From Candidatus Nanosyncoccus sp. (GTDB taxonomy: Bacteria > Patescibacteriota > Saccharimonadia > Saccharimonadales > Saccharimonadaceae), in the NCBI GenBank assembly GCA_045587885.1, contig JAZNDC010000030.1, forward strand, positions 1,628 to 65,627: DNA of 64,000 nucleotides, read 5' to 3'. Under the pieces are notes generated by a model. That model did not search any database, was not told the DNA's origin, and saw only the letters and a program-made list of their open reading frames with translations. Made by a program: the position numbers and the translations under genes. Within the stretch, counting starts at the first letter, position 1. Every line of letters starts with the position of its first letter. Shown here piece by piece: positions 58,010 through 63,304 of this stretch.

Positions 58010-59735
58010 TTTGGATGGCATCTCTTTGATGCCGGAAGATAACACCCGCAAAACAAAAACAAATAATAGGCTTGCGGACTACATTTTGTTGTCTTCCAAA
58101 ATTCGCGTAGCGGCATTTATGTCCGCGGCGTTTTTGTTTGTATTTTCTTTGCTTGCAGTTTTTCCGATAGCTAGTAGTTCGGATGATACTCTGGCCACTT
58201 CTCCTAGAGAGAGCGAAACTTCGATGACGATCAGTACTGATGATTTGAATTTACAATTTGATGTTGATGCAATAAAGGGGACTTTTTCGGAAAGTTCAGC
58301 AAATGTAAGTGTAACTACAAATAATATAACTGGGTATACATTAAATATTGTAACTGGGAATACTGGTAATGATGCCGGAAAACTGGTGGGTGAGAATAAG
58401 TCGTTTAATACGATTTCTAGTGCTACTTCGGAAACGGATTTTGCGGCGGAGTCTGCCACTACTATGAATGGACTTTAGGGATACAAGCCGAGCAAAGTAA
58501 ACGGGGAAAGCAATACTGATTATCTTCCTGCGCCTACGGAACAGACTACAATTGAAAGTACTACGGCGCCAAATGCGCAGGCGAATGTGTATGAAATTGC
58601 TCTTGGTGCTAGGGCGGATATGTCTTATGAAGCTGGTGGATATACTAATACTTTTATTATCACCGCTATTGCAAATCCGGTGAGATATACTATTTCTTTT
58701 AATGAAAATACGGAAGACGAAGTTACTAATATGCCAAGCGAGCAGGGTGGTACGACGGTTGGCACGGTGGTAAGTCTTGCTAGTGATGTGCCGGTGAGGG
58801 ATGGGTATGATTTTGCGGGTTGGTGTGATGGCACGGCGAGTGGTGCGGATTGTACGGGCACGGTTTATCAGCCGGGAGATGATTATGCGATTGACCAGAC
58901 TACTGCTAATAATGTAACGCTTTATGCGCTGTGGGGTAGTGATGCAGTGACTTTTGACGAGGCTTTTGCTGCTGCCGAAAAAACCAAAGATACTACTTCG
59001 GGCAAATATAAAATGCAGGATATGACCGCTTCTATTTGTAGTGCTGTTACTACCGGCCAGACCGGCGAACTCGTCGATACTCGCGATAGTACCGTTTATC
59101 GTGTTGGTAAACTCGCAGATGACAGATGTTGGCTGCAAGACAACCTCGCACTAGACCTTACAAACACAGATGTAAAGAATGCTATGTATGATAGTAGCGA
59201 CTCTACCCATGATACTATGACTAACGCCACCAATACACAGCTAGGCTATCTGTTTAATGGCGGACGTAATTCTGAAGATGCTAATACTGACAACCTTCCT
59301 ACTGCAGGTGTAGCTAACTGGACCAGTGACTATAACTATAACTATTCCGTGCCACTAGTAGATATGACAAGCAAAGACGTTGAACCAACTCACTATTCAG
59401 ATCCTGATCCTCAGTACGACGCAGATGACCCGTTAGCCTCAGAAGTTACTGCTGGGCACTGGAAAGTAGGTGGATATTACGACTATTGTGCAGCTTCGGC
59501 CGGTAGTTACTGCTATGGTGACGGTAGTACATATAGTGGTACACCAGTAGACAAACCAAACACTGCCATCGATGCAGAATACGACATTTGTCCATCTGGC
59601 TGGCGCATGCCTACAGGAGGTAGCTATGATGCTACAGCTCGTCCAGATGGCGGTGAATACCAAAACCTATATGACCATTACTCTGGCGCTAGCGGTACAG
59701 GCGAAGGAAGTAGATATGCTAACTTTAGAAACGCT

Positions 59736-59915
59736 CTTAGCCTTCCTCTCTCGGGCTACTTCAACCAAGGCTCAGCGGACTTTCAGGGCTCGATCGGCTT
59801 CTTCTGGTCCTCTACGTACAATAACTCCGATATGTACGGCCTCGGCGCAGATACATCACGTGTCACGTGGTATTACAACGGTCGCAACAGCGGGAGCTCT
59901 ATGCGTTGTATAGCT
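59736..59915 (+). other. Candidate DGR variable region 1
   Basis: End of first FISUMP domain; differs from the paralogous region at codon positions 1-2 while the scaffold stays identical. Confidence 0.6.
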
Positions 59916-60836
59916 AAAGACGGCACGGAGCCTGCGCCAGTCGACCCGGACAATCCTGTGCAGCCGTATCCAGAGGACCCATGTAACAGTAATCCAGATT
60001 GTGATGCTACAAGTGGTGTAACTCTTCAGCGTGCCTACGAAATGGCTTATACTGCTGCACACAAAGGTATGTACGAAGAAATTAATCCAGGCAGCAATAC
60101 ATATCAATATATAGATTCTTGGAATGGCGTGCAGTACCAAGGTGAAGGCAGAGATGTCCGCTTCCTCATCCAAGATATGACCCCAGAGATTTGTAGCACT
60201 GCTACAGTAATTGGTTCACAGACGCTAGTATTAGATATACGCGACCAGACTAGCTACTATATCGTAAAGGCTGCAGATGGCAGATGCTGGATGCAGGATA
60301 ATTTAGCACTGGATCTTACCAATGTAAATGTAAAAAATGCTATGTATAGCGATACGGATACCAATCATAATACGAATACGAATGCCACTAACACGCAATT
60401 AGGCTATCTATTTAATGGTGGGCGTGTTTCTGGAGAATCTACTACGGATAATCTTCCTACTGCAGGTGTAGCTAACTGGGGCAGTTCAAATAGCTACTCT
60501 GCACCACTAATAAATATGGCAAGCAAAGACATAACTAGAGCCGACTTAACAAATCCAGAAGATACGCTAACAGAAGCAGATGACTGGAAAATTGGTGGCT
60601 ATTACAACTATTGTGCCGCTTCTGCTGGTAGTTACTGTTATGGCGATGGTGCAAATTGGGGTACACCAGTAGACAAACCAAACACAGATATTGATGCAGA
60701 ATACGACATTTGTCCATCTGGCTGGAGAATGCCTACTGGTGGAGCAAGCGGTGAATATCAAGCTCTTGCTACTATCACCAATGGAGCTTCAGGGAACATC
60801 TATGATTCTACTAAATATACAGCCTTTAGAAATGCT

Positions 60837-61037
60837 CTTAGCCTTCCTCTCTCGGGCATCTTCAGCTATGGCTCTACGTACAATCAGGGCACCTACGGCA
60901 ACTTCTGGTCCTCTACATATTATAATGACAACTATGGCAACTGTATGTACTATCTAAGTGCCTATACGTCCAATATCCGCCCGCAGGAATACAGCTATCG
61001 CTTCATCGGTAGCTCTATACGTTGCGTAGCTCAGTAG
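60837..61037 (+). other. Candidate DGR variable region 2
   Basis: 3' end of gene; LPLSG.F..GS...QG..G.FWSST...MY.L.A.TS.....R..GSS.RC.A layout. Confidence 0.65.
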
Positions 61038-61201
61038 TCTTAGAGAAGAGATTCCGTTTCAGTTCTTTACGTTCTCTAATCTCTGAAAAAGGCACTCTAG
61101 GCCCATCATTTAAGCCTATCCATTTTCACGAAAATTTTTATGCATAATAATATCTATGGTGGGGGTTGTAGATTTTACTATTCTATGCTAGAGTGCTGGG
61201 C

Positions 61202-61654
61202 ATGGATAAAATAGATAGAAAATACAAAGAATGGTTTGGTGTAAAAGCTGATATCCAAGCTAGAAAGAATAAGCCACATTTTAAGGAATGGCAGATTTGG
61301 TGGTGTGCTGTCGGTGAGAATGTTGGCGTTGAAATAAATGGTAAGGGGATGAAATTTGCCAGGCCGATTGTAGTATATAGAAAATTAAGCGAATATGGTT
61401 TTGTGGGCATTCCTCTTACGACACAGGATCATACTGAAACGTCACCAGATTGGTATGTTCATTTTAGATTTAGAGGCATAGATGAGTATGCTGCTTTGCA
61501 CCAAGTGGAGTCTGTGAGTGTCTATAGACTCTATCGTTTTGTCGGAACGTTGGATGATGAAGACATTGATGTCGTAAAAAATGGCTTTAGGAAACTATAT
61601 ATAAAAAATACCCCTTCCATAAAGAAGGGTGTGGCGGGAGAATCCCGAATATGA
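61202..61654 (+). CDS. PemK/MazF-family toxin, no adjacent protein antitoxin
   Basis: WWCAVGENVGVEINGK...RPIVV...GIPLTT...Q...VS..RL pattern. Confidence 0.8.
   Translation: MDKIDRKYKEWFGVKADIQARKNKPHFKEWQIWWCAVGENVGVEINGKGMKFARPIVVYRKLSEYGFVGIPLTTQDHTETSPDWYVHFRFRGIDEYAALHQVESVSVYRLYRFVGTLDDEDIDVVKNGFRKLYIKNTPSIKKGVAGESRI
61600..61652 (-). ncRNA. Candidate ~50-nt antisense sRNA over the PemK 3' end
   Basis: Minus-strand TTGTAC-N17-TATAAT (61687-61659) with TG extension; hairpins cggga-ttc-tcccg and cccttc-tttatg-gaaggg followed by U-tract. Confidence 0.5.
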
Positions 61655-61730
61655 CTTTATTATAGCATATTAGGGTATTTTGTACAATAGGGTTGGCAAG
61701 GGGGACAATCTGTGGTATAATTAGTCCACT

Positions 61731-62127: not shown

Positions 62128-62541
62128 ATGAATAAAATAGAATTAGAAAAAGTACCCAAAGATAAAGTGGGTAGAATTGAAAAGAATGGCATAAAACTAG
62201 AAGATCATGAAGAAAAGACAATTAGATTTTTGTTGAAATACGGTTTTAACATTGAACTGATTCGCCCAGTAAGTATCCCAAAGATGAACAATCCTGATAT
62301 TTTGGTGTCTGGTGCGATTTGGGAGATAAAAGCGCCGACTAGTTTTAATGAAAACAAGTTAAAAAAGAGGATAAAAAAAGCTTCAAGGCAAGCAAGCCGC
62401 GTGGTTTTTGACCTTAGAAATATGAATAGGGATTATGAAAAAGCCGGGATATTTTTAGAAAGAATGTTTGATGGTAATGCGACTATAAGAAGAATGATTA
62501 TTATTGAGAAGAAAGGAAAAGTCATTGAGTATTATAAATAG
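62128..62541 (+). CDS. Stand-alone PD-(D/E)xK nuclease, CdiA C-terminal toxin-like
   Basis: DHEEKT...GFNIELI...NPDILVSGAIWEIKAP...KKASRQASRVVFDLR. Confidence 0.65.
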   Translation: MNKIELEKVPKDKVGRIEKNGIKLEDHEEKTIRFLLKYGFNIELIRPVSIPKMNNPDILVSGAIWEIKAPTSFNENKLKKRIKKASRQASRVVFDLRNMNRDYEKAGIFLERMFDGNATIRRMIIIEKKGKVIEYYK

Positions 62542-62610
62542 ATGTAGTATAATCAAGGTAATGAGGGCGACCCCGTTCTTAATTGAGCGAGGCCAAGCCC
62601 TCTTTTTTTG
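62525..62610 (+). ncRNA. Candidate promoter + ~50-nt hairpin RNA downstream of nuclease
   Basis: TTGAGT-N17-TATAAT (62525-62553), then gagggc...cgttc-ttaatt-gagcg...gccctc + T7. Confidence 0.4.
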
Positions 62611-62650
62611 ACAAAAAAAGACCCCGCCTGTAAAAGCGCGGGGTTTTTGG

Positions 62651-63304
62651 TCAGTTCGTTGTTTCGGGGATTGCTTTTTTATTGATTGATTCGTAGATTT
62701 GATCTCCGAATCCATCAATTTTTTCCAGAGCTTTCGCAGTTTGTTTAAAAATTCCGCGAAACTCTTCGGGGAAGTTACCTTTATTCTTATAAAGGTAATG
62801 TTCCAGCTTTGCCCAAAGATCCATGGCGCAGGACCTAATCTGTACTTCTACGGGGATCAATTCTGTACCGTCTTCGGTATAAATTTCTACATTTACTATT
62901 AGATGAAGAGATCTATACCCATTTGGCTTTGGGTTTGAAACATAATCCTTTGTTTTTACAACTGACATTCCAGGGAAATGTCGAATCGCGTTTTCAACGT
63001 CTTTGATTTGTTTTCTAAACAAAACAATAATACGCTGTCCTGCGATATCGTTAACACATTCAAGGATTTCTTCTATCGTTGCGTCTTCGATTTTTGCATT
63101 TTTTTCCTGGAACTTTTTTGTTATTTTATTCCAAAGACTCTTCCATTCTTTCATGCGAAAGACTACGTCAGCGGGGATTTCTTTTCCGCTACTTTCCATC
63201 AGGGAGAGGCAATTCTTGCTTCTTGTGACAACTAGAAAAAGTGCCGCCTGATATTTCGGTTGGATTTTGGAATAAAACTCTTTTTTAAATAATTCTTCTG
63301 TCAA
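62651..63304 (-). CDS. Small alarmone synthetase (RelA/SpoT SAS, (p)ppGpp synthetase domain)
   Basis: DIAGQRII, KDYVSNPKPNGYRSLHLIV, VEVQIRS.AMDLWAKLEH; TTG start. Confidence 0.88.
   Translation of the reverse strand: MTEELFKKEFYSKIQPKYQAALFLVVTRSKNCLSLMESSGKEIPADVVFRMKEWKSLWNKITKKFQEKNAKIEDATIEEILECVNDIAGQRIIVLFRKQIKDVENAIRHFPGMSVVKTKDYVSNPKPNGYRSLHLIVNVEIYTEDGTELIPVEVQIRSCAMDLWAKLEHYLYKNKGNFPEEFRGIFKQTAKALEKIDGFGDQIYESINKKAIPETTN

Follow-up and report, generated by a model that had tools for sequence, protein, structure and literature searches.

The window analyzed here, a 64,000-nucleotide (nt) stretch of a Candidatus Nanosyncoccus sp. genome, carries a 150-aa open reading frame (ORF) of the PemK/MazF toxin family at 61202-61654 of the plus strand, recognized by a Pfam PF02452 profile match and by reading of the sequence. 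Facing it on the minus strand, and abutting its 3' end, is a compact unit predicted to encode a small RNA (sRNA) of about 50 nt (61603-61652). The two genes together make up a module of about 530 bp, and our comparison of related loci points to the RNA, in place of a protein antitoxin, as the partner of this toxin.

The promoter of the sRNA, located by a promoter scan at 61659-61687 of the minus strand, consists of a -35 box TTGTAC (61687-61682), a 17-nt spacer, a TG dinucleotide (61667-61666) and a -10 box TATAAT (61664-61659). It agrees with the consensus at 10 of 12 positions and is TG-extended (TGcTATAAT). Transcription is predicted to begin at the A at 61652, 7 nt past the -10 box, giving a 5' end of AUAUU, not AUG, and to run to about 61603, with both ends placed by the scan, the predicted fold and covariance models. 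The RNA would fold into two hairpins (-17.4 kcal/mol, z -2.7). Hairpin 1, CGGGA-UUC-UCCCG, lies at 61647-61635 and is joined by the C/A-rich linker CCACA (61634-61630) to a 7-bp terminator hairpin (61629-61612), after which comes G-U-A-U6, with the U-tail at 61610-61603. The first-pass annotation, made from the letters of the sequence, had reported this promoter as pointing into the last 17 or so codons of the toxin and as followed by ATA rather than ATG, and had drawn the same hairpin and the same terminator with its U-tract. Each of these elements was recovered in our analysis at the positions given there, and the predicted RNA falls inside the last 17 codons. No Rfam family matched the element. 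This 0.83-Mb genome holds one copy of the unit, which ruled it out as a repeated element, and only 11 units that satisfy a strict definition (an extended promoter and a terminator within 110 nt) were found genome-wide.

The toxin ORF matched PF02452 with an E value of 1.1e-8 and a score of 35.7 bits, against a cut-off of 23.1, over positions 2-108 of the 109 in the profile, and gave no match to NCBIfam. A whole-genome scan with PF02452 returned the window PemK at 36 bits, and the gene is single-copy in the genome. By Pfam, alignment and a structure model, residues 1-133 (61202-61600) form the conserved core of a long-form MazF/PemK endoribonuclease, with an N-terminal helix carrying W11 and K15, the GENVGVEINGKG insertion, a catalytic-type Arg in F-A-R54-P55 and the P71-L-T-T-Q motif. 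Relative to canonical MazF, the N-terminal helix and a G-E-N-V-G-V-E-I-N-G-K loop are additions. All 14 family-invariant residues of the homolog alignment are present in the window PemK, and an alignment of 24 homologs shows no variation at R54, P55 or P71 and a conserved TTQ motif. The best match in a profile search of PDB sequences was MazF/EndoA of Bacillus subtilis (4mdx), with F-A-R54-P falling on V-R25-P and PLTTQ on the T48 region; by this alignment the positions of the catalytic-type Arg (R25 of B. subtilis MazF) and Thr/Ser (T48) are kept. The core was modeled confidently by AlphaFold2 (AF2), with a predicted local distance difference test (pLDDT) score of 85-93, and when the model was compared with the PDB in Foldseek the top 50 matches were all MazF and none was ToxN or AbiQ, at TM-scores to the target of about 0.65-0.77. 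The modeled protein has the SH3-like barrel fold of MazF and Kid, and the window PemK is predicted to be an endoribonuclease toxin of the MazF/PemK family.

The remainder of the ORF (61601-61654), set off by the alignment and the AF2 model, is a non-conserved C-terminal read-through tail of 17 residues, KNTPSIKKGVAGESRI, with a TGA stop. The exact complement of the sRNA is pemK codons 134-150, and the tail is that complement read as codons; the TGA (61652-61654) coincides with the predicted start of the sRNA. Most of the roughly 40 relatives collected by protein search lack the tail or have a different one; it is found in the closer relatives, with the others ending earlier. In the window PemK, residues 138-150 are predicted to be disordered (pLDDT below 50 in the AF2 model). 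In one homologous locus (L007) a TAA stands immediately before AAAAAATACCCCTTC, so the element lies after the stop codon. These observations bear out the earlier description of the tail as the RNA read backwards. Within the pemK coding region, a terminator-like 12-bp hairpin with a T-rich tail was also seen at 61505-61534 of the plus strand; it may be a chance occurrence or an internal attenuator.

The putative pemK promoter, read from the sequence at 61158-61194 of the plus strand, is composed of a G-rich block, GGTGGGGG, fused to a -35 box TTGTAG (61166-61171), a 17-nt spacer and a weak, TG-extended -10 box TAGAGT (61189-61194). It is placed such that a leaderless mRNA starting at the ATG is predicted. 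Related loci have the same G-rich -35 block and weak -10 boxes of the TAGGGT/TAGAGT type upstream of pemK, and in these loci as in the window a weak toxin promoter is set against a near-consensus sRNA promoter. We considered the G-rich block upstream of pemK as an operator and ruled this out, the block being part of a general promoter class in this genome, GGTGGGGGTTGTA(A/G)-N14-TGnTAnnnT with the ATG 6-7 nt downstream (leaderless). Six copies of the class were found, three in the window (61158-61171, about 22229 and about 54110) and three elsewhere in the genome (C28:2784, C29:8479 and C30:349). The class also occurs upstream of pemK in other Saccharibacteria loci and may mark a particular sigma factor or regulator.

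We built a covariance model (R1) from five copies of the sRNA element and applied it to nine first homolog loci and to 46 metagenome or viral loci that had been found by protein alignment alone. Besides the window, which scored 89.7 bits, R1 recovered a minus-strand copy where pemK ends in every one of the nine first homolog loci and in 39 of the 46 metagenome or viral loci. The seven misses comprised five contigs that end at or before the end of the gene and two diverged copies that were recognized by eye and with a second model; the sRNA unit was present in 41 of the 41 metagenome or viral loci that have DNA past pemK. The element follows pemK in all homolog loci that were read, with the stop codon before, inside or beyond it. 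Stem sequences differ between loci by compensatory changes, as in CCCTTC/GAAGGG, CCCCCTC/GAGGGG, CTCCAGT/ACTGGAG and CTCTCTC/GAGAGAG. Across 49 distinct sequences, 96% of the pair cells are standard and all 12 pairs show two-sided changes; 136 compensatory cells were observed versus 32.5 ± 6.1 in shuffles, and the covariation score was 0.63 versus 0.03-0.09 with slid partners. The aligned sRNAs contain 17 G-U pairs and four A-C pairs, and it is this excess, together with the U-tract and the promoter, that assigns the RNA to the minus strand. The promoter boxes (TTGaca-N17-TGnTAnAAT) are held at constant spacing in about 50 loci, and the flanking DNA is not conserved. In sequence, the 5' tail and hairpin 1 are kept (the stem is CGGG/CCCG in about 40 of the 49), whereas the terminator stem varies freely. 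The antisense promoter and the covarying hairpins that the first-pass annotation had suggested looking for in homologous loci are both conserved, in more than 50 loci.

A further model (R2), built from 55 R1 hits and scoring the window sRNA at 81.8 bits, was used to scan 401 genomes of the phylum, with PemK playing no part in the search. Hits were obtained in 13 of the genomes, and of the 16 hits other than the window itself, 15 adjoin a convergent PemK ORF and one is an orphan copy. These results bear on the suspicion that a promoter-like and a terminator-like sequence have merely come together by chance where an AT-rich gene ends, and that they give rise to no meaningful RNA. Promoter-like hexamers are indeed frequent around the locus, with 14 in 1.8 kb versus 5.5 expected, but conservation backed by covariation in so many loci, promoter boxes at constant spacing and a PemK neighbor at nearly every hit of the model-first scan speak against such an accident. 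Chance resemblance is already refuted in effect by the comparative data, and we give it a negligible probability. The comparisons demonstrated that the predicted sRNA gene, with its promoter, two covarying hairpins and U-tail, is real in an evolutionary sense, and that it is, on the loci compared, obligatorily linked to this PemK clade.

The position of the toxin stop codon relative to the sRNA is also regular. In 39 of 53 modules the stop ends 7-12 nt short of the base of the terminator stem, within the A-run that templates the U-tail of the sRNA. The window belongs to a minority class, in which the ORF lacks that stop and crosses the whole complement of the sRNA. From this comparison the conserved feature is evidently the abutment, and the coding overlap in the window is incidental, arising from a lineage-specific read-through tail. 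The 3'-overlapping layout proposed in the first-pass annotation is therefore retained in part: a convergent RNA does lie at the end of the gene, but its overlap with the coding sequence is not a conserved trait. Spurious C-terminal tails arise when gene prediction carries the toxin ORF on across the RNA gene, which is the case in the window.

PemK relatives were found in 5 of 201 genomes of the order, and when R1 was run with stricter filters on the same 201 genomes only the genome of the window matched. A protein scan of genome contigs returned only a distant relative in Shewanella. The module stands in unrelated gene neighborhoods across the loci, and this, with its sporadic distribution, indicates that it is mobile. 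The sRNA family, which has no Rfam entry, ranges from rumen Saccharibacteria to other Patescibacteria.

Some relatives depart from the single module of the window. A 1.2-Mb Patescibacteria genome (G291) contains five PemK-sRNA modules (L087, L099, L100, L101 and L102), whose proteins are 55-72% identical and whose hairpin 1 sequences are of three types that follow protein similarity. Tandem duplicates of the complete sRNA unit, from promoter to terminator, are present downstream of pemK at two loci (L002, 432-609; L010, 546-764), and one partial sRNA copy is present at a third (L006, about 555-600). A distant PemK (26% identity) in another genome of the same order (L033 in G149) is without an sRNA of the window class and is followed by a different convergent unit, TGtgTATAGT and then ACAAAC..., which represents a second sRNA class. 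A metagenome protein of 215 aa (P0033) has an N-terminal HTH_3/Xre domain fused to PemK and could be a self-regulating variant; one locus with an sRNA hit (L096) matches the PemK half of this protein.

We looked for a protein partner in the neighborhood of pemK, in the genome and across the related loci. Upstream, a 164-nt gap separates pemK from a large Fib_succ_major surface-protein gene (58587-61037), and downstream lies rpsO with its own promoter. No antitoxin-sized ORF adjoins pemK, either in the 164-nt upstream gap or downstream, so that together with the PF02452 match the earlier description of an orphan PemK/MazF with no flanking antitoxin ORF holds. The MazE family (PF04014) had no match in this genome, which is 97% complete, versus matches over the cut-off in 9 of 14 control genomes. 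No family of neighboring ORFs is conserved in more than 7 of 47 loci, and the family that reaches 7 is that of the large surface protein. These searches established that no recognizable protein antitoxin is conserved with this PemK clade. Assignment of the locus to the type II MazEF/PemIK modules was accordingly tried and rejected, since such a module has an adjacent co-transcribed antitoxin (MazE/PemI, of the AbrB or ribbon-helix-helix type), which is missing here. The Fib_succ_major-type genes adjoin the module on either side in the 7 of 47 loci (L005, L011, L048, L071, L072, L077 and the window), suggesting insertion of the module in variable surface-protein regions.

The sRNA is retained where the toxin gene has decayed. 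In a genome of the same genus (L032) the sRNA is kept beside a pemK with an internal deletion and a frameshift; at L061 it is kept beside about 15 N-terminal pemK codons fused to the element; and at L094 it stands alone, with no pemK. No complete locus of this clade was found to have pemK without the sRNA. Survival of the sRNA beside a destroyed pemK, and never the reverse, gives the asymmetry expected of an antitoxin, and we consider it probable, from these sequence comparisons, that the sRNA is an RNA antitoxin of some kind. The candidate RNA antitoxin of the first-pass annotation thus gains support from an RNA at every complete locus of the clade, from the want of a conserved protein partner and from an RNA that outlives its toxin.

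If the RNA unit were not an antitoxin, it could work in cis, either insulating the end of a mobile pemK cassette or stopping transcription there, or else tuning pemK expression, and PemK would be harmless in its host or would be neutralized by an unrecognized protein encoded elsewhere. A terminator placed exactly at the gene end would suit such an element, as would the sporadic and evidently mobile nature of the module, and the HTH_3 domain fused to PemK in P0033 implies that protein-level regulation exists in the wider family. A mere terminator, however, needs no conserved near-consensus promoter, no conserved 5' tail and no first hairpin, and this terminator faces the wrong way for pemK transcription, its U-tract being on the minus strand only. 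The persistence of the sRNA after toxin loss is also at odds with this explanation, as is the genome and neighborhood survey, which turned up neither a conserved neighbor ORF nor a MazE gene. We judge it improbable.

Counterparts of the module were sought by tblastn of plasmids and phages for long-form PemK homologs. The closest precedent came from plasmid pVir of Campylobacter jejuni 81-176, on which a PemK-like gene (WP_011117588; old tag next to pVir0047/0048) is 33% identical to the window PemK over residues 1-121 (E 8e-12) and shares with it the W..VK N-terminal helix, a G-x-N-I-G-x-E-x-x-G-K insertion and the RP and PL(S/T)(S/T) motifs; as in the window, no adjacent protein antitoxin is annotated. 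Beside it lies the sRNA CJpv3, a 77-nt transcript running from 31119 to 31043 of the minus strand that Dugar et al. (2013, Table S12) detected by differential RNA sequencing and on a Northern blot. When CJpv3 was mapped onto our copy of the locus (L081, 2486 to 2410), its measured start fell 7 nt past a TGaTATAAT box, which matches the start predicted for the window sRNA, and its end fell 5 nt past the stop codon of the PemK-like gene. CJpv3 is, like the predicted sRNA of the window, an independently promoted convergent RNA with a TG-extended -10 box that terminates at the toxin stop. It differs in its length and its three hairpins and is matched neither by our models nor by Rfam, and the pVir locus is plasmid-borne and belongs to another phylum. 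PemK homologs on plasmids of Nitratiruptor and Helicobacter suis and in CJIE4 prophages also show the convergent layout of promoter, hairpins and terminator. With its filters off, R2 gave no hit on the pVir, H. suis and CJIE4 units and scored the Nitratiruptor unit at 17.6 bits (E 0.46); by covariance model, the Campylobacterota sRNAs are not homologous to that of the window. The earlier proposal of an undescribed toxin-antitoxin (TA) type was too strong, in view of a homologous PemK-like gene adjoining an experimentally detected convergent sRNA. Shen et al. (2016, Mol Microbiol 101:909) reportedly published an antisense RNA antitoxin, cjrA, and a protein toxin, cjpT, of pVir as a type I system. 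Going by the coordinates, this pair is likely to be CJpv3 and the PemK-like gene.

The predicted sRNA is complementary to the sense strand of the toxin gene, in codons 134-150 of pemK in the window and in the stop codon and the sequence downstream of it elsewhere. We put the chance that the sRNA acts mainly by antisense on the 3' end of the toxin transcript at about even. In the proposed mechanism, pemK would be transcribed from its weak promoter into a leaderless mRNA, while the near-consensus promoter would drive the convergent sRNA of about 50 nt, whose intrinsic terminator lies at the end of the toxin gene. No plus-strand terminator was found in our scan between pemK and the sRNA promoter, and for this reason the toxin mRNA is expected to end in a stretch that includes the whole sRNA complement, within the last 17 codons in the window and in the stop codon and 3' untranslated region (UTR) in most relatives. 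Abundant sRNA would pair with the toxin mRNA, RNase III would cleave the paired region, 3' exonucleases would trim what is left, and toxin synthesis would stay low. If the module were lost, or if sRNA synthesis stopped, the short RNA would decay and toxin would be made. Direct RNA-protein contact may contribute alongside antisense. Antisense is favored because the RNA gene invariably converges on pemK and adjoins its stop codon, in more than one phylum, and because there is no plus-strand terminator, RNase III is encoded in the genome, the promoter strengths are asymmetric and the pVir pair is reported to be of type I.

Several points weigh against antisense as the main mode of action. The 5' AUAUU and the stem of hairpin 1 are more conserved than a cis-antisense RNA needs, and since complementarity is automatic for a cis-antisense RNA, this conservation is a hint of recognition by a protein. 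The type of RNA tracks the protein clade, even among the five paralogs in one genome (G291). Pairing with the 3' UTR alone does not block translation of a leaderless mRNA. A search of public runs for transcripts of the window element turned up only low-depth, unstranded metagenome contigs from rumen and gut samples.

The first two of these points lead to a type III-like alternative, in which the sRNA would act mainly, or also, by binding the PemK protein and blocking its RNA groove, with the 5' AUAUU and hairpin 1 imitating a substrate or a product. Linkage and compactness would then be all that the convergent position serves, and such binding could be combined with antisense. A conserved 5' tail and hairpin 1 beside a variable terminator stem is what this alternative would lead one to expect, and in G291 the module with UGGGA pairs with another UGGGA module at 68% protein identity and CGAGG with CGAGG at 72%. 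More distant PemK clades have other sRNA classes (L033, pVir and H. suis), most loci have no overlap of the RNA with coding sequence, and it is general knowledge that ToxN and AbiQ, relatives with the MazF fold, are neutralized by RNA. The match between RNA type and protein clade, however, fits co-inheritance of linked genes equally well, and GC-rich stems of 4-5 bp may be kept for stability in an AT-rich genome. Pure protein binding also leaves the universal convergent, stop-abutting layout unexplained. An avoidance of AUAUU in the pemK ORFs was not seen (33 observed versus 32.8 expected), although this test, which used synonymous-codon shuffles of the ORFs, gave no clear outlier motif and is uninformative. 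We regard protein binding as a rather unlikely main or additional mode of action.

The ORF at 62128-62650 resembles CdiA_C nucleases (Pfam, 1.7e-15) and has a same-strand mini-unit, from promoter to terminator, within its last codons. A paralogous nuclease ORF elsewhere in the genome (C16:10269-10719) has the same arrangement, and a similar small unit follows an integrase-like ORF (C29:56033-56109). The CdiA_C-like nuclease and its mini-unit may constitute a second toxin-plus-small-RNA family in this genome. The minus strand at 62651-63304 encodes a 217-aa RelA_SpoT-domain protein (E 2.5e-25) of the size of a small alarmone synthetase. The RelA_SpoT gene lies next to the two nuclease genes near rpsO, and this region has the look of a small toxin or defense islet.

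What is new in this analysis is the class of sRNAs with AUAUU and the CGGGA hairpin in rumen and gut Saccharibacteria, the model-first test of its association with PemK, the constant spacing between toxin stop and terminator, the asymmetry of the orphan RNAs, and the agreement between the measured start on pVir and the predicted promoter geometry. The results describe a PemK clade that, as a whole branch of the MazF/PemK family, is systematically paired with a small RNA instead of a protein antitoxin, and units of the same layout occur on Campylobacter plasmids and in prophages. If the RNA is indeed the antitoxin, the 'orphan' MazF genes of many annotations would not be orphans, and what separates TA types I, II and III would be the partner and not the toxin family.

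One known RNA motif is already named for an association with pemK. This is the 'pemK RNA' motif (RF02913), reportedly described by Weinberg et al. in 2017, which resembles the window element in being a small motif of several hairpins and in a consensus that starts with AUAAU, and which differs from it in having three stems and a different sequence. The RF02913 model found no match at E values up to 5 in the region, up to 1 in eight homolog loci, or in the whole genome. A sub-threshold hit of 27.4 bits in a genome of the same genus (L019 in G001, 1501-1554) is not near pemK, and a hit to the RF02913 pattern in a viral contig lies upstream of parA, not beside pemK. With no match to the model, and with the inspected hits elsewhere not beside pemK, the window element is not recognized as a member of RF02913. 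The L019 contig has paired small regulator-like ORFs and no pemK, and may be foreign mobile DNA in the assembly.

MazF and PemK are textbook type II toxins, a type defined by its protein antitoxin. The type II MazEF and PemIK (Kis-Kid) systems have the toxin fold of the window PemK and its catalytic-type Arg and Thr positions. The window locus differs from them in that no upstream co-transcribed MazE or PemI is present, and none was found in the genome, and in the N-terminal helix and loop insertion added to its toxin.

The arrangement of the genes is closer to the type I systems txpA/RatA, bsrG/SR4 and bsrE/SR5 of B. subtilis, in which the genes are likewise tail to tail, the toxin mRNA carries the complement of the RNA at its 3' end, and the RNA has a strong promoter and the toxin a weaker one. 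The route proposed for these systems is decay that depends on RNase III. Their toxins are small hydrophobic membrane peptides, whereas the window toxin is a 150-aa soluble protein with the MazF fold and is thus not the small hydrophobic membrane-active peptide that is typical, if not universal, of type I. Their RNAs are also longer, at 100-220 nt with overlaps of at least 75 nt, than the RNA of about 50 nt in the window.

The type III systems (ToxIN, CptIN, TenpIN and AbiQ/antiQ) are alike in that a nuclease with the broader Kid/MazF-like fold has an RNA as its partner. Their antitoxins are tandem repeat arrays, located upstream on the same strand and processed by the toxin, whereas the window RNA is a single unit with its own promoter, convergent and downstream, and the window toxin is a true PF02452 member and not ToxN, AbiQ or CptN. 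The same-strand upstream tandem repeats before a terminator that mark type III are absent from the window, and the duplicates at L002 and L010 are complete units from promoter to terminator. A more speculative synthesis, which we hold to be unlikely, is that this PemK clade has replaced MazE with a single-copy, independently transcribed RNA of about 50 nt that would neutralize the enzyme by binding it directly. Its 5'-triphosphate AUAUU and hairpin 1 would occupy the RNA groove, imitating a substrate or product that resists cleavage, with an antisense layer in addition, making the module a hybrid of types I and III. If true, MazF toxins would have an architecture that is not described for them, one that ranges across Patescibacteria and has analogs in Campylobacterota.

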